The position numbers and the translations under genes were made by a program. 15,357 bases of DNA from Bdellovibrionia bacterium (lineage in GTDB: Bacteria > Bdellovibrionota > UBA1018): NCBI GenBank assembly GCA_045805065.1, contig JBJMMA010000177.1, forward strand, positions 1 through 15,357. Direction: 5' to 3'. Below are positions 1 through 14,840 of the stretch, in pieces (position 1 is the first letter of the stretch; each line of letters starts with the position of its first letter). The notes under the pieces were generated by a model. The model was not told where the DNA came from. It did not search any database and saw nothing but the letters and a program-made list of their open reading frames with translations.

Positions 1-362
1 AGAAGGACTTCCTGGTGGTTGATGCCGCAATGAACGATCTTTTAAGACCATCTCTTTATGGCAGCTATCACGACATTGTTCCGGTGGCGAAACCCGGCAA
101 GCGTGAAAAACCTCGAAAAGCAGATGTCGTTGGACCTGTTTGCGAAACTGGCGATTGTTTTGCATCGGACCGCAAGCTGGGCGCAGCGTTAGGTTCGGGC
201 GATCTGTTGGCAATTCTCTCGGCTGGAGCTTATGGCTTCACGATGTCGAGCAATTACAATAGTCGACCAAGACCTCCCGAAGTGCTTCTTGATCGAGGAA
301 AGATTCGGTTGATTCGTGACCGTGAAACTTATGATGATCTGCTCCGCGGGGAGCAGCTCTAA
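1..362 (+). CDS. lysA: Diaminopimelate decarboxylase, C-terminal part (truncated by window edge)
   Basis: Frame is open from the window start. Motifs DAAMNDLLRPSLY, VGPVCETGD (catalytic Cys) and AGAYGFTMSSNYNSRPRP are typical of LysA. Adjacent to dapA/dapB. Confidence 0.95.
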   Translation, partial: KDFLVVDAAMNDLLRPSLYGSYHDIVPVAKPGKREKPRKADVVGPVCETGDCFASDRKLGAALGSGDLLAILSAGAYGFTMSSNYNSRPRPPEVLLDRGKIRLIRDRETYDDLLRGEQL

Positions 363-423
363 ACGGCCGAGATATATATGACCAGCACGGGCGAAGCCGG
401 TGCGAGATTATAAGGAGAAAGCT

Positions 424-1323
424 ATGCGTGGTGTCTATACTGCTTTGATCACCCCATTTGATTCGTCCAACCGACTGGATCTGGCTGCATTCAAAAAAAT
501 TCTCCTGGATCAAAAAGCTGCAGGCGTTGCGGGCGTGGTTCCGTGCGGCACAACCGGTGAAACTCCAACCTTGAGCGTGGACGAGAAAAAAACGCTGATC
601 ACAACCGCCCTTGAGACTCTCAAAGGCTCAGGCGTTCAGGTCGTTGCGGGAACCGGAAGCAACAGCACTCAAGAAACCATTGAGTTCTCCAAGTGGGCAT
701 CAAGCCAAGGCGTCGATGGAATTCTGGTCGTGACTCCTTATTACAATAAGCCGTCACAAGCTGGACTTGAGGCGCACTTCCGCGCGGTCGCTGATGCCGT
801 TCAGTGCGAAGTCATGCTTTACAACGTTCCGGGCCGTACCGGTGTTTCGATTGCCGCGCCAACCGCAGCAAAGCTTGCGTCGCACCCAAGGATCCGCTCT
901 CTGAAAGAGGCGACCGGAAACGTGGCTTATACGAGCGAGATCATCGACTCCCTGAAAGCCCACAGCGCAAGTCTTGATATTTTGTCAGGGGATGACGCAA
1001 CTTACCTCCCCCTTCTTTGCGTGGGCGCAACGGGCGTGGTCTCGGTGGCAAGCAACTTGTTTCCTCGCGCCATGGTCGCCATCCAAAAAGCGATGGATCA
1101 GGGAAATCACCGTGAGGCACAAGCCATTCACCAGCGCTTCTATCCCTTGTTTCGTGATCTTTTCGTTGACTCCAATCCAGTGCCGATCAAATACGCCATG
1201 GAATATGTCGGCTTTTGCAGCTCGCGCGTTCGCGCCCCGCTTGCACCGCTTTCGACGGCAAACACTGACATCTTGCGTGCAAGCCTCGCAAAGTGTGGCG
1301 TAACGGAAGGGGCCAGACTGTGA
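424..1323 (+). CDS. dapA: 4-hydroxy-tetrahydrodipicolinate synthase
   Basis: GTTGE, PYYNKP, YNVPGRT, Schiff-base Lys in SLKEATG, SGDD and NPVPIK motifs. ATG 424 is preceded by the SD AAGGAG (412-417), so it is preferred over the ORF-track GTG at 400. Confidence 0.96.
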   Translation: MRGVYTALITPFDSSNRLDLAAFKKILLDQKAAGVAGVVPCGTTGETPTLSVDEKKTLITTALETLKGSGVQVVAGTGSNSTQETIEFSKWASSQGVDGILVVTPYYNKPSQAGLEAHFRAVADAVQCEVMLYNVPGRTGVSIAAPTAAKLASHPRIRSLKEATGNVAYTSEIIDSLKAHSASLDILSGDDATYLPLLCVGATGVVSVASNLFPRAMVAIQKAMDQGNHREAQAIHQRFYPLFRDLFVDSNPVPIKYAMEYVGFCSSRVRAPLAPLSTANTDILRASLAKCGVTEGARL

Positions 1324-2039
1324 TCTCAGTTGGAATTCTGGGATCCAATGGCCGCATGGGTCGCTGGGTCTCCCAACTTATCGCCTCTGATTATTCCTCC
1401 CGGACAAAGCTTGCCGCGCAAGCTCACCGGGGAACCTGGCTTGAGCCCCTTCTTTCAGCCGATGCCGTGATTGATTTCTCATCCCCTGAAGGATCCGTAC
1501 AGCTCGCCGAGCTTGCGTTAAAAAAGGGGGACTCGCTTCCGGTCTTCATCATCGGAAGCACCGGTTGGAAACCCGAGCAGCTCAAGACGATTGAAGCCTT
1601 GGCCGCAAAAACTCCCGTGGTTCTCTCATTTAATTTTTCGACGGGAATTTTAGCTCTTCAACGCATGCTCAAGACCTTTGCTCCCCTTTTAACGCAGCTC
1701 GGATATCAGCCTGTGATGGTCGAAACTCATCATCAGCATAAAAAAGACGCCCCAAGTGGAACGGCTATCATGCTGAACCGGGCCATCGAAGGATCCGCGG
1801 AAATCGGTCCTGTCCAAACCCATAGCATTCGCTCAGGCGAGGTCATCGGTGATCATGAAGTCACCTTTTATGGTGCTGCTGAGCGACTGGTTCTTGGGCA
1901 TATGGCTCAAGACCGATCCGTTTTTGCTCGCGGTGCGCTGGATGCGGCGATCTGGGCAGCCTCACGCCGGGAAGAACTCTCTTCGATCAAAACGATCATT
2001 TCCATGGATCGCTACTTTGACGAATTGATTCGGAACTAA
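1320..2039 (+). CDS. dapB: 4-hydroxy-tetrahydrodipicolinate reductase
   Basis: GSNGRMG Rossmann motif, IDFSSPE, IGSTG, ETHHQHKKDAPSGTA and DRSVFARGA. GTG 1320 overlaps the dapA stop (GTGA), suggesting translational coupling. Confidence 0.94.
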   Translation: MISVGILGSNGRMGRWVSQLIASDYSSRTKLAAQAHRGTWLEPLLSADAVIDFSSPEGSVQLAELALKKGDSLPVFIIGSTGWKPEQLKTIEALAAKTPVVLSFNFSTGILALQRMLKTFAPLLTQLGYQPVMVETHHQHKKDAPSGTAIMLNRAIEGSAEIGPVQTHSIRSGEVIGDHEVTFYGAAERLVLGHMAQDRSVFARGALDAAIWAASRREELSSIKTIISMDRYFDELIRN

Positions 2040-2067
2040 ACGCGGCGTTCCAAAATCACAAAACCGG

Positions 2068-2097
2068 TTGCGCTAGACTTCCTCTCGTCGGTATAAC
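2068..2097 (+). promoter_or_regulatory. Putative sigma70-type promoter for etfBA
   Basis: TTGCGC (2068-2073), 18-nt spacer, TATAAC (2092-2097), in the dapB-etfB gap. Confidence 0.35.
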
Positions 2098-2181
2098 GGA
2101 TCGACTAGCAGGCGCTCTGGCGCTTACCTTCAGGCATTCGCGACTAGTTCTAGCGTGCAATGCTAAAACAGGAGATTTTTC

Positions 2182-2955
2182 ATGAACGTTTATGTCTGCA
2201 TCAAACAGGTTCCGGACACGGAAACCAAGATTAAGCTGAATGGTGACAGCTCCGCGATCGACGCAACCGGCGTGAAATGGATCATGTCGCCTTACGATGA
2301 GTTTGCAGTCGAAGAAGCGCTTCGCCTCAAAGAAAAGAACGCAGGAAGCACGGTTACCGTGATCTCCGCTGGCCCGGCTCGCGTGGTCGAAACGATCCGC
2401 ACGGCTCTCGCCATGGGCGCTGACAACGGCATCCACATTGAGCTTCCAGAAACTGCCGATAACAACATGGCTGCAAAAGCCTTGGCCGGCGCTCTCAAGA
2501 AAGAAGCAAAAGTCGACATCGTGTTCTCCGGCAAGGAAGCAATCGATGATGGCGCAGCTCAGGTCAGCCAACTGGCGTCTGAATACTTCGGCATGCCTTG
2601 CGTGACAGTAGTTGCGGCTGCTGAGTACAGCGCAACGGGCGTGAAGTGCAAGCGCGAGATCGAAGGCGGCGCTTTCGAAATGATCGAAGCTTCAATGCCT
2701 GTCTGGATCGCAGCTCAAAAAGGCATGAACGAGCCTCGTTACGCCTCTCTTCCAAACATCATGAAGGCCAAGAAGAAAGAAGTGAAAGCCCTCAAGATGG
2801 CAGACGTTGGCGTCAGCGAAGCTGATCAGAAGATTCGTTACAAGAACCTCCAATTGCCTCCTCCTAAGCAAGCAGGAAAGAAGATTGCTGGCGATCCAGC
2901 AACTCAGGCTAAGGAACTGGTTCGTCTCCTTCACGAAGAAGCAAAGGTGGTGTGA
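2182..2955 (+). CDS. etfB: Electron transfer flavoprotein beta subunit
   Basis: VCIKQVPDTE, SPYDEFAVEEA, ALAMGAD, GKEAIDD and NEPRYASLPNIMKAKKK motifs. SD AGGAG upstream. Confidence 0.96.
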   Translation: MNVYVCIKQVPDTETKIKLNGDSSAIDATGVKWIMSPYDEFAVEEALRLKEKNAGSTVTVISAGPARVVETIRTALAMGADNGIHIELPETADNNMAAKALAGALKKEAKVDIVFSGKEAIDDGAAQVSQLASEYFGMPCVTVVAAAEYSATGVKCKREIEGGAFEMIEASMPVWIAAQKGMNEPRYASLPNIMKAKKKEVKALKMADVGVSEADQKIRYKNLQLPPPKQAGKKIAGDPATQAKELVRLLHEEAKVV

Positions 2956-2957
2956 TC

Positions 2958-3926
2958 ATGGCTAAAGTATTCGTCGTCGCAGAACATCGGGACGGACGTC
3001 TCAAGAAATCCACTTTCGAGCTTCTTGGAGCATCCTCTGCTGCAGGAAACGAAACGCACGCAATTCTCCTGGGAGATGGCGTTTCGGATCTCGCAAAAGA
3101 ACTTGGCCAATATGGCGCTCAAAAAGTGCACATGGCTCAAGACGCAGCTTTGAAGCTCTACTCTGCTGAAGCCTACACCAAGGCAGTCGTTCAGATTGCC
3201 AAGGCAGGCGGCGCGGAAGTCATTCTCGCAAGCCACACCCCAACGGGTCGTGACTTCATGCCACGCGTGGCAGCTCAAATGAACGTGGGCCTTGCAAGCG
3301 ATTGCACGCAACTCTCGTTTGACGGTGGAAAGATCAAAGCACGTCGCCCTGTCTACTCTGGCAAGGCAACGGCTGAAGTCGAGTTCATCGGAAGCGGCCC
3401 TCAAATGGCGACCGTTCGCGCCAATGCTTTGGGAATTCCAAAAGCTGACGCATCCAAGTCCGCTGAAGTCATCAATGCAACCGTGGATCTGGGCGGCCTC
3501 AAGACCAAGGTTCTCGAAGTCATCAAAGGAAACAGCGCACGTCCAGACGTGACTGAAGCCTCGATCGTCGTCTCTGGCGGTCGTTCTTTGAAGAGCGCAG
3601 ACAACTTCAAGATGCTTGAAGACCTGGCTGACGTTCTCGGAGCTGCTGTGGGCGCATCTCGCGCTGCAGTGGACTCGGGCTTCCGCCCGCATCGCGACCA
3701 AGTCGGTCAAACCGGTAAAGTGGTTTCTCCAACCCTTTACATGGCGTTTGGCATCAGTGGCGCGATTCAGCATTTGGCTGGCATGCGCACCTCCAAGGTG
3801 ATCGTTGCCGTGAACTCTGATGCTGATGCTCCGATCTTCCAGCTCGCTGATTATGGCGTCGTGGGCGATCTTTTCGCGATCGTTCCGCTGCTCAAAGACG
3901 AGTTCAAGAAGATCAAGGAACACTGA
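2958..3926 (+). CDS. etfA: Electron transfer flavoprotein alpha subunit
   Basis: VVSGGRSL, AVGASRAAVD, QVGQTGKVVSP, GISGAIQHLAGM and DAPIFQLADYGVVGD FAD-binding motifs. ATG lies 2 nt after the etfB stop. Confidence 0.96.
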   Translation: MAKVFVVAEHRDGRLKKSTFELLGASSAAGNETHAILLGDGVSDLAKELGQYGAQKVHMAQDAALKLYSAEAYTKAVVQIAKAGGAEVILASHTPTGRDFMPRVAAQMNVGLASDCTQLSFDGGKIKARRPVYSGKATAEVEFIGSGPQMATVRANALGIPKADASKSAEVINATVDLGGLKTKVLEVIKGNSARPDVTEASIVVSGGRSLKSADNFKMLEDLADVLGAAVGASRAAVDSGFRPHRDQVGQTGKVVSPTLYMAFGISGAIQHLAGMRTSKVIVAVNSDADAPIFQLADYGVVGDLFAIVPLLKDEFKKIKEH

Positions 3927-6026: not shown

Positions 6027-6213
6027 CACTTTTTCCTTCCTGGAAGTTTTGAATAGTGGATTAGCTCGGTCGAGACGGCCTCGCAGCTACACTTATGCCG
6101 AGGCGGCTTCGCCGCTACGCTTACAAGGATAACCCCTCGCTTCAAACGAGCGCAATTTATGTTTTAGGAACTGGGCGATTTTGTTGTAGGATTTGAGCCA
6201 CGAGGATCGGTTC

Positions 6214-8193
6214 ATGACCTGGCAAACACCACTGTTTTTGATCGTAGCAGCAGCCGCTTTTGGAATCTCCGGATACAAGTTTTCGCAGCTTGTTAAGCTG
6301 ATGAAAGCGCATCAAGGCAAATCCACGGATCGGCTTAACAATATTCCTGATCGCATTTGGATGGTGGTGAAAAACGTCCTCGGCCAGAATGCTGTTCTCC
6401 GCAAGCGAATCATCGGTACAGCGCACGCGACGATCTTCTGGGGCTTCATCATCATTACGATCGGAACCCTGGAGCAATTCGTTTCCACGCTTTATGAGCC
6501 AGCCACTTTCGAATTCATCGGCCAGGCTCCTTACCATGCGCTGGTTTTCATCCAGGACATCCTGACCTTCGCTGTTTTGCTGGCCGTCTTTGTCGCTGCT
6601 TATCGCCGCTATGTGGTTCGTCCAGCGGGCGTTGGCAAGTCGCGCGACGCTGGCTTCGTTCTGCTTTTCACCGGATCGCTCATGGTTGCGATCTTCTTGA
6701 TGAACGCTTTTGGCATCTTGGGCCGCCATCCTGAGTTTGCGAGCGCAATGCCGATCTCCCGTCATCTTGCAAACATGCTCAGTGGAATGAACTTGAGCGA
6801 TGCCGGTTACACGAACCTCTCCACTTTCTGGAAGTGGGTTCACATGGCGATCGTCCTTGGATTTGCGGTTTACATCCCAAGCTCCAAGCATCTTCACATC
6901 ATTGCTGCGGGCCCTAATACTTTCCTCAAGACCCTGGATCGCGAAAAGGGCATGACGCCGATCAACTTTGAGGACGAATCCCTTCAGCAATACGGCGCCG
7001 CAAAAGTGACGGACATGAGCTGGAAGGCCGCCCTGGACTATTACTCCTGCACCGAGTGTGGACGCTGCCAGGACCTCTGCCCGGCGTACAACACGCAAAA
7101 GCCTCTGTCTCCGAAGCAGTTGGTCTTGGATCTCAAGCACAACCTCTTTAACAATAAAGAGAAGATCCTGGCCGGAAAGATCGACGAAGTTTCTCATGTC
7201 GTTGATGAGAACGTGACCGAAGACGTGATCTGGGCCTGCACCAGCTGCCGCGCATGCGAGATTGCATGCCCTGTCTTCATTGAGCAGGTCGATAAGATTT
7301 ACGACATCCGCCGCAATCTGGTGATGATGGAATCTCGCTTCCCAGCCGAGGTGCAAACCGTTTTCAAGAACATGGAAACGAACGCATCTCCTTGGGCGTT
7401 CTCCGCATCCGATCGCGCAAACTGGGCCGAAGGCCTTTCTGTGAAGACGATGGCCGAGAACCCAGGCGTGGACGTACTTCTCTGGGTGGGTTGCGCAGGC
7501 TCTTATGATGATCGCAACAAAAAGGTTCTCAGAGCTTTCGTCAACATTCTCAAGAAGGCTGAAGTCAAATTCGCGATTCTTGGAAACGAAGAGCAATGCA
7601 CCGGCGATCCAGCTCGCCGTATCGGTAACGAGTATCTCTATCAGACCCTGGCTAAGGCCAACATTGAGACGCTCAATCGTTACAATGTGAAGCAAATCGT
7701 GACGGCATGCCCTCACTGCTTCAACACGATCAAGAACGAGTACAAGGACTTTGGTGGCGAGTACCAGGTTTTCCACCACTCCCAATTCATCGCGAAACTC
7801 ATCAGCGAGGGCCGCGTGAAACCCACGAAGCCTGTGGATGAGACGATCACCTTCCACGACAGCTGCTACTTGGGCCGTTGGAACAACATTTATGAACAGC
7901 CTCGCGCCGTTCTCAATGCGCTTCCAGCCGCACGAACTGTGGAGATGAAAGCCAACCACGACCAAAGCATGTGCTGCGGCGCTGGCGGTGGACGCATGTG
8001 GATGGAAGAGAAGATCGGTAAGCGCGTGAACGTCACTCGCACCGAGCAGGCTCTCGACACTCACGCGGGCGTGGTCGCATCATCCTGCCCATTCTGCATG
8101 ACTATGCTCACCGATGGTGTGAAGACCAAGGACATGCAAGACAAAGTGAAGGTCATGGACATCGCTGAGCTCATTGATCAAGCGACTCCGTAA
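6214..8193 (+). CDS. Membrane-bound Fe-S oxidoreductase, FadF/HdrD-like (ETF:menaquinone oxidoreductase type)
   Basis: N-terminal multi-TM domain with His motifs (AHATIFWGF, WVHM, KHLHI). Two ferredoxin motifs (CTECGRCQDLCP, CTSCRACEIACP) and two CCG domains (GCAGSY..CTG..CPHC; HDSC..CCG..CPFC). ATG 6214 follows GAGGA. Confidence 0.92.
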   Translation: MTWQTPLFLIVAAAAFGISGYKFSQLVKLMKAHQGKSTDRLNNIPDRIWMVVKNVLGQNAVLRKRIIGTAHATIFWGFIIITIGTLEQFVSTLYEPATFEFIGQAPYHALVFIQDILTFAVLLAVFVAAYRRYVVRPAGVGKSRDAGFVLLFTGSLMVAIFLMNAFGILGRHPEFASAMPISRHLANMLSGMNLSDAGYTNLSTFWKWVHMAIVLGFAVYIPSSKHLHIIAAGPNTFLKTLDREKGMTPINFEDESLQQYGAAKVTDMSWKAALDYYSCTECGRCQDLCPAYNTQKPLSPKQLVLDLKHNLFNNKEKILAGKIDEVSHVVDENVTEDVIWACTSCRACEIACPVFIEQVDKIYDIRRNLVMMESRFPAEVQTVFKNMETNASPWAFSASDRANWAEGLSVKTMAENPGVDVLLWVGCAGSYDDRNKKVLRAFVNILKKAEVKFAILGNEEQCTGDPARRIGNEYLYQTLAKANIETLNRYNVKQIVTACPHCFNTIKNEYKDFGGEYQVFHHSQFIAKLISEGRVKPTKPVDETITFHDSCYLGRWNNIYEQPRAVLNALPAARTVEMKANHDQSMCCGAGGGRMWMEEKIGKRVNVTRTEQALDTHAGVVASSCPFCMTMLTDGVKTKDMQDKVKVMDIAELIDQATP

Positions 8194-10041: not shown

Positions 10042-10230
10042 TCAACCGCGCTGTTCGGCTGGAAGAAAATCTTTGTGAGCCGCAATGAAGCGCTTGAGTG
10101 CCGTGTTGGTCAACTCAGACTTCGTCAGTTTGGAGTGTTTTTCCATCGCAGCGAGCTTCTCGGCGACTTCTTTTTCAACTTCAACTTCAACCTTTGCAGT
10201 TGGGCCGACCATTTTGTAATCGTCACGCAT
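10042..10230 (-). CDS. Small ribbon-helix-helix (CopG/MetJ/Arc-like) protein
   Basis: Alternating beta strand KVEVEVE, helix KEVAEKLAAMEKHS, then TKSELTNTALKRFI (SE-L-x-x-AL pattern). Strong SD AAGGAG. Confidence 0.7.
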   Translation of the reverse strand: MRDDYKMVGPTAKVEVEVEKEVAEKLAAMEKHSKLTKSELTNTALKRFIAAHKDFLPAEQRG

Positions 10231-10263: not shown

Positions 10264-11199
10264 TCATGAGAGAGAACGTCCTCGCAGCAGATCTTTAACA
10301 ACTCCGTACATGACTTGAGGGAGAGCTTCGAGCTCGGGCACTTCTCGCAGTGCGCCATTCCCCTTTTGAGCAAGTTCCCGGCAAAGCTGAAGGCTTGCCC
10401 TCTCCTTACCCATTTTCATCACCACCAGATGGGAGAAGCGCGGCGCAAGATACGCTGGATCTCGGCCTGCCGTATACTTCCCATCGGTTAAAAGAACCGT
10501 GGATGGAGGCCTTCCTTGATGCCCAAGGTCAACCGAACGTGCAAGCTTGAGCGCGGCAATCATTCCATCCTCTAAATGGGTGTACCCTTGCGCAGGGACA
10601 TCTAAGAAGCGCTCAACGAGTTGTTGAAGGGAAATGCGCTCGTTGGGTCGCTTTAGAATCTGCGCGGCATTCTCAAACGCTACAATTCCAACCGGATCAT
10701 CCGGGAACTGGAGCAAAACAACGGCGAGAGCCACGGCAGTCAACGCTAGCTTTTCTCCCGTCATCGAAAGACTCGTATCAACGGTAATAACGAGCGGCTG
10801 TTTCCTTGGAACCCGGTAAGTCATCCAGACATCCGCACCCGTGAGTGGGTAATCACCGACGTTGAGGCCCGCCACACTGGCTATAGCCAGGGGTGAGTTC
10901 TCAAACGTCTCATCGAGCTCAAAATCAGGTTGCTCCGCATCTCCAGGAAGCTCATCCCAGGGAACGTTTCTGGTTTCAGATGGATGAACGACCGAGCCCA
11001 GGATTTCCTGAGCCTTATCAAGAATGGCTTGAGCAGACAGACGCCTTAGATGGCCAATTCGCTGGCTCATCGAAGGACGCGCCTTGAGTTCGTGATACCG
11101 AATCGCAACATCCCATGAGCTTGCGTTACTCAGATCGTCCGGAAGATCATTGATATCCAAGCTCATGGAAGATCCAAAAGCCTCGGGCGGCAAAAACAT
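10264..11199 (-). CDS. von Willebrand factor A (vWA) domain protein, CoxE/ChlD-C-terminus-like; possibly translated only as the C-terminal part of a frameshift fusion
   Basis: Intact MIDAS motif (VDTSLS, GYTH, LLTDG). The reading frame is open upstream of ATG 11199 back to a TGA at about 11322, overlapping the end of the AAA gene. Confidence 0.88.
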   Translation of the reverse strand: MFLPPEAFGSSMSLDINDLPDDLSNASSWDVAIRYHELKARPSMSQRIGHLRRLSAQAILDKAQEILGSVVHPSETRNVPWDELPGDAEQPDFELDETFENSPLAIASVAGLNVGDYPLTGADVWMTYRVPRKQPLVITVDTSLSMTGEKLALTAVALAVVLLQFPDDPVGIVAFENAAQILKRPNERISLQQLVERFLDVPAQGYTHLEDGMIAALKLARSVDLGHQGRPPSTVLLTDGKYTAGRDPAYLAPRFSHLVVMKMGKERASLQLCRELAQKGNGALREVPELEALPQVMYGVVKDLLRGRSLS

Positions 11200-11285
11200 C
11201 GGTGTTGCGCTCTGAAAGCTCTGCTCCCCCGGCGAAAAGATGCTTTTAAACGAGCTCTTCTGAGCTTGCTCTTGAGGTGCCTGGT

Positions 11286-12236
11286 CTATGGCTTTTTTTT
11301 TACGCCTGGCGAGGAAAGCTCATCCAAAACAGAGCGGGCCCATTCTTTGAGGGTGCTTTCAAGCTCAGAGCGGGCTTCGCGAGCCGACTCCGTTTCATGC
11401 TCCATCTCGATACGAGTTGGCAGAGCAAGAATGACAGCTTTCAAGAATGCCTCTTCAAGGCTCATTCCCTGGCGCAAGAAGACAGCACCAATTTCAGCCA
11501 CGCTGAGCGCAGCACGGACCGAAGCACCCCGGCGGATCTTTGAATGTTCACGGGTCATGCGCGCAATGCGAACCGCTGCAAGCGCAAGGGACTTCTCGTC
11601 TGATCCCTTGGGCTCAATCCGCTCGGAAACGATCTGCAGCTCTTCTTCTTCAGTCTGATAGTCGAGAACGACTAGCTCAAAGCGATCTAGAATCGCTTCG
11701 CTCAAATGAGAGGTTGCGACGAATTCTTTTGGATTTTGAGTCGCGATGACCAGAAATCCATCTTTTGCGCGAATCTCGCCCAAACGTGGAACCAAAATCA
11801 TGCGCTCATCAATTGCGGGAAGAAGGATGTTTTGGACACCTTCAGGAAGGCGATTAAGCTCGTTAATGAAAAGAATGCCACCTTCTTGCATGGCCTCAAC
11901 GAGAGGGCCTGGCACGAACGCTTCTTTTCCAAATCCCTTTTTGATGACCGTGGGTGGATCAAACCAGCCCGAAAGTTTTTGTTCGGAGTAGCGGCTATCG
12001 CCGTCGACACGAAAAACCGGAATCCCAAGCTCTTGAGTGACCGCGAGCGCCAGATGCGTTTTGCCGACTCCGACAGGGCCCTCAAGCAAGACGTTACGCT
12101 TGGCTTTCAAGCACGCGCGCACTTGTGAGAGCTCATCGGTTCTACCGAATAAACGTCCCGGACCGCCGTTATTTTTGGCGGCAAGCTTGTTTCCGTTAGC
12201 AGGTTTGGCTGAAGGAGTTTTACCTTTTGAGCTCAT
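11286..12236 (-). CDS. MoxR/CoxD-like AAA+ ATPase (AAA_5 type)
   Basis: LFGRTDEL, Walker A GPVGVGKT, Walker B variant ILFINELNR, IATQNP (sensor I), LSEAILDRF (Arg finger) and GASVRA (sensor II). Confidence 0.92.
   Translation of the reverse strand: MSSKGKTPSAKPANGNKLAAKNNGGPGRLFGRTDELSQVRACLKAKRNVLLEGPVGVGKTHLALAVTQELGIPVFRVDGDSRYSEQKLSGWFDPPTVIKKGFGKEAFVPGPLVEAMQEGGILFINELNRLPEGVQNILLPAIDERMILVPRLGEIRAKDGFLVIATQNPKEFVATSHLSEAILDRFELVVLDYQTEEEELQIVSERIEPKGSDEKSLALAAVRIARMTREHSKIRRGASVRAALSVAEIGAVFLRQGMSLEEAFLKAVILALPTRIEMEHETESAREARSELESTLKEWARSVLDELSSPGVKKKP
11292..11301 (-). other. Slippery site (A9G, containing A_AAA_AAG) joining the AAA+ frame to the vWA frame by a -1 shift
   Basis: The minus strand reads GGC GTA AAA AAA AAG CCA TAG. 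The -1 frame continues GCC ATA GAC CAG ... ACA CCG ATG(11199) with no stop. Confidence 0.65.
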
Positions 12237-12265: not shown

Positions 12266-13246
12266 TTAGACTCTTGCTGCCGTCTTCTTTTTAGCTTTGG
12301 CTTTAGCTTTAGCCTTCGCTTTAGATACTGCTTTCGCTTGAGCCTTACTCTTTACTGCTTTTACCAAAGCCTTGGCGACCTTTGCCTTTTGCTTCGGCAA
12401 TGTCTTTGCTTTCATTTTAGGCTTAACAGAGTTTGATTCTTTTTTCTCAGATTTTACCGGCAAGCTGGCCTTTTGGCCTCCGGCTTGACGCCTCATAAAC
12501 TCATCATAGATGTAGCTTGCGACGTCCGATGGCTTCGTACCCACTCCAAAGCCAGCATCAAAGCCGCACTCAAGCGCCATAGGGTGCGTCACGCGGGGGC
12601 CACCGCCCACAAAGATAAACTGATCGCGAAGGCCCTTCTTTTCAGCCATCACCATGAGGTCTTTCAGGTCCTTGATGTGAATATTGTGCTGATCGACGAC
12701 TTTAGAGACCAGGATCGCATCGGCCTTTTCTTCAACGGCCATTCTGAGCAAGTCCTCGTTCTGAACCTGCGCGCCCAGGTTTTTAGCGTCGATCCATTGA
12801 TAGCGCTCCAGGCCGTAATCTCCAGCAAAGCCCTTCATGTTAATGATCGCGTCGATTCCCACGGTATGAGCGTCGTATCCCGTGCATGCGCCCAATATCT
12901 TGAGCTTACGTCCGATGTTCTTTGCGATCAGCTCATCAATCTCATCGCGAGAGCGCTTCTTGGAGTCGACCTTGATCACCTTGATCTCGGTAAAATCCAC
13001 GGTGTGCTTCATGTTCCCGTAAATCACAAAAAGCGCAAAGCCATCGCCCGCTTTTTCCATCGTGGCGACTTTGATCTTTTCGAGCCCCATTTTCTGCGCA
13101 AGCTGCACGGCCGCTTCACGAGCCTCCGGAGATGGCTCAACAGGAAGAGTGAACGCGACCTGAATCGTGCCATCGTCCATGATATCGCCGTAAGGGCGAA
13201 GCTTCTTCAGATTAACTACTTTTTCTTTCGAGGTTGCTGTGGACAT
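12266..13246 (-). CDS. kamE: D-lysine/beta-lysine 5,6-aminomutase beta subunit (AdoCbl-binding) with Lys/Ala-rich C-terminal tail
   Basis: N-terminal RPYGDIMDDGTIQVAFTLPV dimerisation domain, cobalamin motif DAHTVG, PLP Lys in NMKG, GLERY, GGPR and GFDAGFG. Confidence 0.95.
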   Translation of the reverse strand: MSTATSKEKVVNLKKLRPYGDIMDDGTIQVAFTLPVEPSPEAREAAVQLAQKMGLEKIKVATMEKAGDGFALFVIYGNMKHTVDFTEIKVIKVDSKKRSRDEIDELIAKNIGRKLKILGACTGYDAHTVGIDAIINMKGFAGDYGLERYQWIDAKNLGAQVQNEDLLRMAVEEKADAILVSKVVDQHNIHIKDLKDLMVMAEKKGLRDQFIFVGGGPRVTHPMALECGFDAGFGVGTKPSDVASYIYDEFMRRQAGGQKASLPVKSEKKESNSVKPKMKAKTLPKQKAKVAKALVKAVKSKAQAKAVSKAKAKAKAKAKKKTAARV

Positions 13247-13265: not shown

Positions 13266-14840
13266 TTATAGAAGCTCAAAGAATGGATTGAGATAGTCGT
13301 TTCCACGCGGGATGACGCCCTCAAGGCCCTTGCCGCCATTTTCAGTACGTTTCACTTCGGCAAACGCTTTTTCTTCGATGGCTTTTGGAAGACCCTTCTT
13401 GTCGATCATCTCAAGATGCTTGAGCGTATCGTCGAGGACTTTCTTGGCCCAGTTCTCGATCATGCCGTTTGGCTTGAAAGTGATCTCGCTTCCAAGCTCC
13501 TTGGCGCCGTTGAAAATATACTTGGCGTTCTTGATGCTCATCCAGCGATCTTGAAGAAGCGGAGTGTGCATGGCTTCGGTAGCCATTCCAAGAAGCTGAA
13601 TGGTCTGACCCGTGAGTACTCCCACGAAATTAAACATCGCATCCATCAAGTGACTGTAGAAAATGTCACCGCACTTAAATCGCGTTGGCGGCATGAACTT
13701 GATCGGGGATTTTGGAAAGATATCGCGAGTCATCTGAGCGCGCGCGATCTCAAGCAAGAACACGTTTGGATGCTCTGGATCCATTTCCTGCGCGTGTCCA
13801 AGTCCCATGAGGTCTTGAGTCATCTTGGCGTTCAGGGCAAAGCGTTCATTGATGAATTGAGAGGCCAGAACTTGATGACCGTTCTCAATCGCATCTGCCG
13901 TCGTCAGATAGTTGTCTTCGCCCGTATGAATGACGATGCGAGAAAGCGCGATGATTCGACGGGAGAAATGCTGGTCGATCAGCGTGCGTTTCATATTGAT
14001 GTCGCGAAAAAGAATTCCGTACATCGCGTCGTTGAGCAAGAAGTCGAGACGCTCCATCGCGCCCAAGGCTGCGATCTCGGGCATACAAAGACCCGAACAG
14101 TAGTTCGTCAGGCGGATATATCGGCCTAAGCGTTTGCTTTCTTCATCAAGCGCCGCACGCATGATGCGGAAGTTTTCTTGAGTTGCGTAAGTGCCGCCAA
14201 AGCCTTCGGTCGTTGCGCCATGGGGAACGAAATCAAGAAGCGATTGCGCTGTACTGCGAATCACAGCAATCGCATCAGCTCCGGCTTGAGCTGCTGCCTT
14301 TGCCTGAATCACGTCATCATAGATGTTGCCGGTAGCAACGATGACGTAAAGGAGCGGGCCATTCTTTCCTTCAGCATCGAAGGGGTCGCGCGTTTCATTT
14401 CTCAAAGCATCGCGACGCTCACGCTGCTCGATCAGGTTTTGAACGGCCTTTTTGCAAAGCTCTTGGGCCATGGCTTTCACTTCGCTCTCGGATGCGCGCG
14501 GAAGCTTGATGAGCTGGATCTTGCGCTTGGCTACTTCTGTCGCAAGCTCCGAGGCAGGCATTTTCTTTTGGATCATGCCGTTGACGAACCAATGAAGAGC
14601 GCCGCGATCAAGCACGCCTTCTTTACGAAGGTCTTCAACGATGATGTTTACTTCCGGAAACCATTGGCCGCCGTGTTGAACAGCGCCCTCGATGCCCAGG
14701 AGGCGAAGTGTTGCTCGCTCGATGGCAACCGTGGTGTGTGCCTGAATCATCTCTTCAACCGGGCGAGAAACGCGTTCAGCGATCTCGCGGCAGCGAGCGA
14801 TGATTTTTGGATCCAAAGACTGGTTTGATAAATGTGCCAT
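13266..14840 (-). CDS. kamD: Lysine 5,6-aminomutase alpha subunit (TIM barrel)
   Basis: HTTVAIERATLRLLGI, YVIVATGNIYDD, AVIRSTAQSLLDFVP, GFGGTYATQENFRIMR, NYCSGLCMPEIA, TGEDNYLTTADA, KFMPPT, EAMHTP and GGKGLEGV. Confidence 0.96.
   Translation of the reverse strand: MAHLSNQSLDPKIIARCREIAERVSRPVEEMIQAHTTVAIERATLRLLGIEGAVQHGGQWFPEVNIIVEDLRKEGVLDRGALHWFVNGMIQKKMPASELATEVAKRKIQLIKLPRASESEVKAMAQELCKKAVQNLIEQRERRDALRNETRDPFDAEGKNGPLLYVIVATGNIYDDVIQAKAAAQAGADAIAVIRSTAQSLLDFVPHGATTEGFGGTYATQENFRIMRAALDEESKRLGRYIRLTNYCSGLCMPEIAALGAMERLDFLLNDAMYGILFRDINMKRTLIDQHFSRRIIALSRIVIHTGEDNYLTTADAIENGHQVLASQFINERFALNAKMTQDLMGLGHAQEMDPEHPNVFLLEIARAQMTRDIFPKSPIKFMPPTRFKCGDIFYSHLMDAMFNFVGVLTGQTIQLLGMATEAMHTPLLQDRWMSIKNAKYIFNGAKELGSEITFKPNGMIENWAKKVLDDTLKHLEMIDKKGLPKAIEEKAFAEVKRTENGGKGLEGVIPRGNDYLNPFFELL

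Follow-up and report, generated by a model that had tools for sequence, protein, structure and literature searches.

The stretch of DNA analysed here, referred to throughout as the window, comprises 15,357 nucleotides (nt) of a Bdellovibrionia bacterium (positions 1 to 15,357 of contig JBJMMA010000177.1, assembly GCA_045805065.1) and carries on its minus strand the gene of an AAA+ ATPase, followed by a gene with a von Willebrand factor A (vWA) domain. The genome holding the window is a metagenome-type assembly of 4.22 Mb in 262 contigs and is 94% complete. The open reading frame (ORF) of the ATPase (11286-12236, minus strand), which would give the short product of the locus, encodes 316 amino acids (aa) with a Pfam AAA_5 domain, and the vWA ORF (10264-11199, minus strand; Pfam VWA_2/VWA) lies in the -1 frame relative to it. 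Read directly on the minus strand, the 3' end of the ATPase ORF is GGC GTA AAA AAA AAG CCA TAG. It contains a run of nine A's (A9; 11301-11293), the proposed slippage site, followed by a G at 11292. The run and this G together hold the in-phase heptamer A_AAA_AAG (11298-11292), and the zero-frame stop codon TAG (11288-11286) is located a single codon beyond AAG.

The -1 frame is closed by a TGA at 11322-11320 and open from 11319, and both frames are open over the 34 nt between this TGA and the TAG (11286-11319, minus strand), where a shift at any point would fuse the ATPase and vWA halves. Past the run, the -1 frame from 11292 to 11200 (minus strand) forms a linker of 31 sense codons encoding AIDQAPQEQAQKSSFKSIFSPGEQSFQSATP and continuing directly into the ATG at 11199, with no ATG, GTG or TTG in this frame between the A run and that ATG. 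The sole Shine-Dalgarno (SD)-like string before the ATG, GGGGGAG, ends 24 nt upstream. The original prediction, which proposed that programmed -1 frameshifting or transcriptional slippage produces both an AAA+ subunit and an AAA-vWA fusion here, had pointed to the A9-G next to the ATPase stop, the 31 start-free sense codons leading into ATG 11199, the closing TGA near 11322 and the lack of a well-spaced SD, and direct reading of the frames and coordinates bore out each of them. A shifted product would combine 315 residues from the ATPase frame with 342 from the -1 frame (linker plus vWA half), giving 657 aa with the predicted junction peptide ...VKKK/AIDQAPQEQAQK, which would be the same for a polymerase slip and a ribosome slip.

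Runs of this kind are rare in the genome. Just eight A/T runs of nine were found in 4.22 Mb and none was longer, the junction run exceeds chance expectation, and it is the only A/T9 run of the genome that bridges two long open frames (329 codons upstream, 342 downstream). Among 1820 long ORFs, one of 160 KKK tripeptides was encoded as A+AAAAAAAA[AG], and this single A-rich site is presumably the junction itself, which fits the pattern within a 316-codon ORF. As a separate observation, the sole G/C run of nine in the genome (contig C26:2126-2134, minus strand) joins open frames of 371 and 498 codons with an ATG immediately after it, and probably represents a G-rich ribosome-binding region where two genes overlap.

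An A9 junction could also arise by assembly or sequencing error if the true sequence were A10 and the gene a plain fusion. Homopolymers are error-prone on some platforms, the assembly is of metagenome type and in many contigs, and no contig from the sequencing reads bridges the run with 31 nt on each side. The read-level count of nine against ten A's proposed in the original prediction could be made in part: two low-depth contigs reach across the run (11119-11314 and 11287-11588) and both show nine T's, gap-free and with no sign of A10, although they probably derive from the source study and are not independent of the assembly. Moreover, 63 distinct assemblies, drawn from many projects, would all need to contain the same error, at A9 and A10 alike and always leaving the vWA half in -1 (see below), and we find this explanation hardly credible.

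The A run and the -1 relation across related loci

Relatives of the locus were gathered by a search of 41 genomes of the same family and order (L001-L020), by a profile scan of one genome per species (L021-L100) and by a metagenome scan with a fused homologue as the query (L101-L123). Within L001-L100, four relatives lacked the vWA half at a contig end and nine duplicates were dropped, resulting in 87 distinct loci with both halves. The vWA half was in the -1 frame in 63 of the 87, each with an A run inside the overlap of the two open frames, and a further 19 were plain in-frame fusions without an A run, in assemblies labelled Thermoplasmata/Thermoplasmatota, Methanobacteriota or Euryarchaeota. 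These are the two arrangements that the original prediction had asked to be looked for among homologous AAA/vWA pairs, and the comparison came out as it predicted. The remaining loci comprised four with the vWA half in +1 and one (L053) in frame 0 with N's, so that the 68 split loci divide into 63 in -1, four in +1 and L053. All 18 family and order relatives with both halves show the -1 relation, and in each of them the overlap contains an A run. The run was A9 in 37 of the 63 loci, A10 in 23, A11 in one and A7 in two, and 61 thus carry nine to eleven A's.

In the zero frame AAA AAA AAG was preceded by GAA, CAA, TTA, CTA or GTA, with a few other patterns besides, and 24 of the 63 loci owe the ninth A to the wobble position of TTA, CTA or GTA. 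In the window genome TTA and CTA account for 5% and 3% of Leu codons and GTA for 8% of Val codons, and Lys is encoded less often by AAA (43%) than by AAG. The GC-rich metagenomic relatives L114 and L119 also retain GTA AAA AAA AAG. Because rare wobble-A codons and GC-rich relatives keep it, the run itself, and not just a Lys-rich tail, is under selection, at a length of at least nine A's.

Between the run and the point where vWA homology begins, the spacing took 44 different values between 39 and 225 nt, with the -1 relation kept throughout. No ATG, GTG or TTG was present in the vWA frame from the run to the homology start in 26 of the 63 loci, and no ATG in 40. The column of the alignment that holds the Met of the window is M in 3 of 36 aligned -1 products. 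A motif [FY]xSxF (FKSIF in the window) is conserved within the start-less linker upstream of this column, and xF[LF]PPE is conserved around it. Since the start-less linker is conserved in its amino acids and the Met is not, the linker is likely to be translated and reachable solely from the ATPase frame.

These data bear directly on whether the locus is two ordinary genes, with the vWA gene starting at ATG 11199 by reinitiation or from a weak ribosome-binding site and the A run no more than a conserved KKK tail. An ATG does exist at 11199, KKK is found at the junction of several in-frame fusions too (P0005, P0008), and separate genes usually encode MoxR-type ATPases and their vWA partners. The start-less loci, the unconserved Met, the conserved residues upstream of it and the absence of a well-spaced SD all argue against independent translation, as do the -1 relation in 63 of 68 split loci despite 44 linker lengths and the avoidance of A runs by KKK elsewhere in the window genome (1 of 160). 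Conserved vWA starts of their own and a lost motif, which the original prediction had named as evidence that would count against it, were not what the homologues held, as 26 of the 63 have no start and all 63 have the A run. We regard the two-gene explanation as very improbable.

Of the loci outside -1, three were set aside: L100 (+1) is not comparable, its best vWA match lying upstream of the ATPase, L053 has N's, and L037 (A9, vWA half in +1 and open only from +70) probably carries a second indel. In L082 (A11, with a TGA directly after the run; labelled Hadarchaeota) and L091 (A10; labelled Acidobacteria) the vWA half is in +1, and these loci would need one A fewer or two more. They may be real alternative settings or homopolymer errors of metagenome-assembled genomes. 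A further variant, L101, has an in-frame A10 (L101:2319-2328, GTA AAA AAA AAA GAG), exactly what the addition of one A would create at the window junction, and is 97% identical to the fused representative P0005. The long form of L101 is DNA-encoded, and a slip into -1 would give a truncated ATPase stopping 12 codons on.

Homopolymer tracts are classic contingency loci. DNA-level phase variation, in which the run would change length at replication and cells would switch between a split A9 and a fused A10 genotype, would be one way to account for L101, and L082 and L091 show other combinations of length and frame; recent decay of a fused gene would be another source of a split locus. However, none of the 68 distinct split loci was in frame (L053 has N's), L101 is the sole in-frame locus among those with an A run, the near-identical pairs L028/L031 and L012/L048 are all A9, and the contigs over the window's run showed no length variants (depth about 3, one study). 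Both halves also remain under protein-level constraint, at 50-95% identity and with the metal ion-dependent adhesion site (MIDAS) intact. Phase variation or decay is in our judgement quite improbable.

Among database proteins the family is bimodal in length: of the best 30 matches among 1.84 billion representative proteins, 17 were of 205-339 aa and 12 of 563-711 aa, the latter being in-frame fusions. Given these fusions within the same family, the joined ATPase-vWA protein is a natural form. The ATPase halves were placed in a quick maximum-likelihood tree of 84 sequences (L053, L077 and L095 dropped), for which the careful search is unfinished and the midpoint root serves for drawing only. 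The 18 fused rows formed one clade with a Shimodaira-Hasegawa approximate likelihood-ratio (SH-aLRT) support of 99. A-run forms occupied all other deep branches, including rows labelled Myxococcota, WWE3 and Acidobacteriota, and A-run rows with archaeal labels (L082 Hadarchaeota, L099 Methanobacteriota) were located next to the fused clade.

Overall, the conserved frame, the conserved run and the missing starts support programmed -1 recoding that would give a 316-aa AAA+ protein and an AAA-linker-vWA protein of about 657 aa, as originally predicted. Recoding of one kind or the other, ribosomal or transcriptional, is highly likely to yield two products from this locus, and an assembly error, two independently translated genes or a pseudogene are each very unlikely.

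Polymerase and ribosome slippage as candidate routes into the -1 frame

Under the proposed scheme the AAA+ and vWA frames would be one recoded gene. Most transcripts and ribosomes would keep the DNA-encoded frame as far as the stop past the A run, producing the 316-aa AAA_5 ATPase, and a fraction would continue in -1 to a protein of about 657 aa consisting of the ATPase, about 50 residues of disordered linker, a region of mixed helical/beta structure and the MIDAS vWA domain. At A9 the nascent RNA would realign on the template within RNA polymerase and an extra A would be added, and the resulting mRNA would read GTA AAA AAA AAA GCC ATA GAC (V K K K A I D) by ordinary translation. A -1 ribosomal slip at A_AAA_AAG would lead to an identical protein and may contribute alongside slippage of the polymerase. 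From the sequences, we infer that both proteins are made, that the polymerase rather than the ribosome slips and that the short and the long protein assemble into a common AAA+ ring. Their ratio may, as the original prediction proposed, set the stoichiometry of this ring. To the transcriptional version as such we assign about an even chance.

Slippage of the polymerase is favoured by four lines of evidence. Firstly, 61 of the 63 loci keep nine to eleven A's, and do so by way of rare codons, whereas a ribosomal heptamer needs six or seven; runs of nine A or T slip efficiently in vivo (PMC5009743). Secondly, neither of the usual stimulators was enriched. Downstream RNA structure was not conserved (60 nt after the run: median z -0.14, with 6 of 63 loci below -2), for a wider fold the median z was -0.31 and values below -2 occurred in 4 of 63 loci compared to 2 of 63 in the control, and an upstream SD-like 4-mer was present in 13 of 63 loci compared to 12 of 63 in a control window. 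Thirdly, a tRNA-Lys(CUU) gene is encoded in the window genome. A second Lys tRNA is a likely reason for polymerase slippage at Thermus dnaX (PMC5009743), and by the argument of that paper a tRNA-Lys(CUU) should hold AAG firmly. Finally, the arrangements of L082, L091 and L101 need something besides a -1 slip.

One candidate stimulator was found in the window itself, where a long-range stem within 11200-11340 (minus strand) encloses the run, its 5' arm being the 30 nt that precede the run and its 3' arm lying 65-95 nt beyond (minimum free energy -46.7 kcal/mol, z -2.18). It was rejected, because it is not conserved over the 63 loci and its 5' arm would be inside a ribosome positioned at the run. 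The phase of the run was likewise dropped as a discriminator between the mechanisms, since any run of at least seven A's holds an in-phase heptamer.

The alternative is programmed -1 ribosomal frameshifting, in which the Lys tRNAs on AAA (P site) and AAG (A site) would together slip back one base on an unaltered mRNA, and translation would proceed with GCC ATA GAC. We consider this route possible, though somewhat short of probable. The misfit of a -1 slip to the +1 arrangements at A10 (L091) and A11 (L082), the surplus of A's over those that the heptamer needs, the tRNA-Lys(CUU) gene and the lack of conserved stimulators, compared to chlD signals described as including downstream structures (PMC9227772), all speak against it.

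Several observations nevertheless weigh against polymerase slippage, most of them in favour of the ribosome. All 63 loci contain an in-phase X_XXY_YYZ heptamer, which is A_AAA_AAG in 44 of them, the base following the run is G in 53 while the long-form residue that it helps encode varies (A, D, E, V, G), and a run ending in G in this manner resembles the outcome of selection for a dnaX-type heptamer. The GC-rich loci L054 and L058 keep the -1 relation with A7 only, which is short for efficient polymerase slippage, and the zero-frame stop is located at most 4 nt past the run in 40 of 63 loci. Published Mg-chelatase/chlD genes with A_AAA_AAR reach up to 63% shift in Escherichia coli reporters (PMC3711429, PMC5009743), and this closest precedent is described as ribosomal frameshifting (PMC3711429, PMC9227772). 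The tRNA argument comes down to one tRNA gene call, as tRNA-Lys(UUU) was not found in the 94%-complete assembly. A search of sequencing runs for the locus returned only four DNA runs, all from one soil study that probably is the source study, and no RNA run. In addition to this, the loci are mutually related and their counts overstate the number of independent events.

The protein halves and the neighbouring genes

The upstream half matched Pfam AAA_5 with 83.6 bits against a cut-off of 22 and has a Walker A motif GPVGVGKT at 12057-12080. By sequence, midasin has the nearest solved AAA modules (E 4.5e-42), ahead of NorQ (4.3e-17) and then CbbQ and CobS, with BchI (3e-5) and ChlI (8e-4) ranking well below these four. 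By these similarities the ATPase is assigned to the AAA_5 (midasin/NorQ-like) group and not to ChlI/ChlD. The original label of a MoxR/CoxD-type system was thus roughly right, with the refinement that the domain is AAA_5 and that midasin and NorQ are closest. AAA_5 above its cut-off, NorQ, CbbQ and midasin as closest relatives and an adjoining MIDAS vWA domain are the features of a MoxR-class AAA+ protein with a vWA partner, and the canonical Walker B hhhhDE of that class is absent. The Walker B reads INE (I124-N125-E126; 11860-11874, minus strand) instead of the usual DE, and N125 and E126 are invariant in 22 family members, compared to LDE in the aligned midasin modules.

The downstream half matched VWA_2 (36.1 bits) and VWA (26.5 bits) in Pfam and contains the MIDAS motif DTSLS at 10765-10779. 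The MIDAS residues D172, S174, S176, T238 and D270 are invariant in the 36 aligned -1 products. An AlphaFold2 model of the 342-aa -1 product was confident, with a predicted local distance difference test (pLDDT) score of 88.6 and a predicted template modelling (pTM) score of 0.80. Over residues 1-50 of the model the pLDDT was about 50, and the linker is accordingly predicted to be disordered, with a folded body beyond it. Foldseek matched this body to vWA domains, including the NorD VWA (9qh6_G, 7.6e-9) and the Rea1 MIDAS domain (6qt8, 1.3e-8).

Two genes for lysine 5,6-aminomutase are located directly upstream of the ATPase gene and both exceed their NCBIfam equivalog cut-offs. The first gene of the operon shown, kamD (alpha subunit; 13266-14840, minus strand), matched Lys-AminoMut_A with 761.8 bits and NF052384 with 762.5 bits (cut-off 600), and kamE (beta subunit, B12-binding; 12266-13246, minus strand) matched NF052385 with 343.6 bits (cut-off 280) and has OAM_dimer and B12-binding domains. 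The AAA gene is preceded by kamE in 43 of the 63 -1 loci. In nine of the remaining 20, fewer than 700 nt of upstream sequence are available, and 11 have at least 1.4 kb and no kamE. At the fused loci kamE was found nearby in 0 of 19. This gene order suggests that the ATPase-vWA machine would serve the adjacent B12-dependent lysine 5,6-aminomutase.

Directly downstream of the vWA ORF, a 62-aa ORF (10042-10230, minus strand) with AAGGAG before its ATG has a homologue in 28 of the 63 -1 loci. It matched no Pfam family and gave weak matches to VapB_antitoxin (E 0.028) and to PRK11675, a LexA-regulated protein in NCBIfam (E 0.0094), and its small product may bind DNA or act as a partner of the other proteins of the operon. 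Elsewhere in the window, a 635-aa open frame without a Pfam match (6157-8064, minus strand) lies antisense to a 666-aa gene with Fe-S/CCG domains (6193-8193, plus strand) and is most likely a shadow ORF. Positions 3-3926 (plus strand) hold the C-terminus of a lysA-like decarboxylase, dapA and dapB, then electron-transfer flavoprotein beta and alpha, and genes of lysine synthesis and of lysine breakdown thus stand together in one 15-kb stretch.

Comparison with known recoded genes and AAA+/vWA systems

Few cellular genes use programmed recoding to make two subunits, the examples being dnaX, chlD and a handful of others. The locus described here would, if the proposed recoding is correct, add a second, separate AAA+/vWA family that makes two subunits from one locus in this way. 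Its signature of nine to eleven A's in 61 of 63 loci and A7 in two, over several phyla with bacterial and archaeal labels, suggests polymerase slippage over ribosomal frameshifting. Such loci are called as two genes in annotation, with the vWA start arbitrary or lacking, and a tethered ATPase-adaptor would be missed. Recoding would also give a handle on the proportion of MoxR-type rings to vWA adaptors and on an uncharacterised helper of a B12-dependent aminomutase. A bolder extension, which we think rather unlikely, is that the poly-A site is an ancient cross-domain device for obtaining two subunits from one gene in a mini-midasin family (one AAA_5 module plus a tethered MIDAS), where the slippage frequency would set the number of adaptors per ring. 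The mixed ring of Bdellovibrionota would then form a new class of ATP-dependent factor acting on the B12 radical enzyme lysine 5,6-aminomutase, either as a reactivase or as a cofactor-exchange chaperone, and nucleotide pools or the speed of transcription might shift the balance between the short and the long form.

No account of such recoding, either in a gene of the AAA_5/MoxR type or beside an aminomutase, was found in the literature searched, the coverage of which excluded one supplement of PMC3711429 and Antonov 2020. PMC3711429 and PMC5009743 contain 0 mentions of aminomutase, Willebrand, MoxR or Bdellovibrio.

The closest precedent is frameshifted chlD (fs-chlD), where a short ATPase ends at an A_AAA_AAR site, a long ATPase-vWA protein results from a -1 shift and homologues elsewhere are fused (PMC3711429, PMC5009743, PMC9227772). 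As in those genes, the AAA+ frame of the window stops just past an A-rich site at the boundary with a -1 half, the -1 frame adds a linker and a C-terminal vWA/MIDAS domain, some homologues are fused in frame, and annotation usually splits the locus into two neighbouring genes. Unlike chlD, the ATPase is of the AAA_5 type (midasin/NorQ-like) and not ChlI/BchI, the run has nine to eleven A's, the neighbours are kamDE and not cobN/chlH, and the downstream RNA structure described for chlD signals (PMC9227772) is not conserved. Membership in the fs-chlD, BchD/ChlD or putative cobaltochelatase groups was therefore rejected on model scores, downstream structure and the cobN/chlH neighbour. The ATPase scored 36.0 bits with TIGR02442 (cut-off 779.45) and 32.2 bits with TIGR02031 (cut-off 499.55). 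A genome-wide scan with the chelatase models gave 34.7 and 24.7 bits for the window and 37.5 bits for another MoxR paralogue, with nothing over the cut-off. Pfam Mg_chelatase reached 22.3 bits, but no stretch passed and the match covered just 25 P-loop residues. Neither CobN nor ChlH was found among the 18 ORFs of the window (62-666 aa, the longest included), to which the search for cobN was confined.

The locus shares with dnaX of Thermus thermophilus (PMC5009743) a homopolymer of 9 nt, separate tRNAs for AAA and AAG, and a short and a long protein that would arise, as they do there, from A's added by the polymerase. A homopolymer of at least about nine A or T at a frame junction, as at slippage sites of that type, is found in 61 of the 63 loci. 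The protein family differs, and in Thermus the long form is DNA-encoded and slippage leads to the short one, the reverse of what is proposed for the window; L101 has the layout of Thermus dnaX. With dnaX of E. coli (PMC5009743) the locus has in common the identical in-phase heptamer A_AAA_AAG and a zero-frame or shifted-frame stop close by. It differs in that neither an upstream SD-like element nor a downstream hairpin is enriched, in having a tRNA-Lys(CUU) gene instead of a single tRNA-Lys that reads AAG weakly, and in a run of at least nine A's.

Among AAA+/vWA systems as such, midasin/Rea1 (PDB 6or5, 6qt8) has the closest solved AAA domains and likewise combines AAA_5 modules, a long linker and a C-terminal MIDAS. 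Midasin, however, carries six AAA modules in a chain of 4,700-4,900 residues and functions in eukaryotic ribosome assembly, whereas the protein described here has one module per chain and a Walker B with NE in place of DE. NorQ/NorD (PDB 9qh4-9qhg) also pairs an AAA_5-type ATPase with a vWA/MIDAS partner and is operon-linked to a presumed client enzyme, which is nitric oxide reductase there and would be a B12 aminomutase here. The vWA half of the window has no start of its own and would be tethered to its ATPase by the proposed recoding, unlike the two proteins of that system. NorQ and NorD are separate genes. The recoding at the window junction is very probably, to judge from these comparisons, the chlD-like trick in a different ATPase family, next to a B12-dependent lysine aminomutase.

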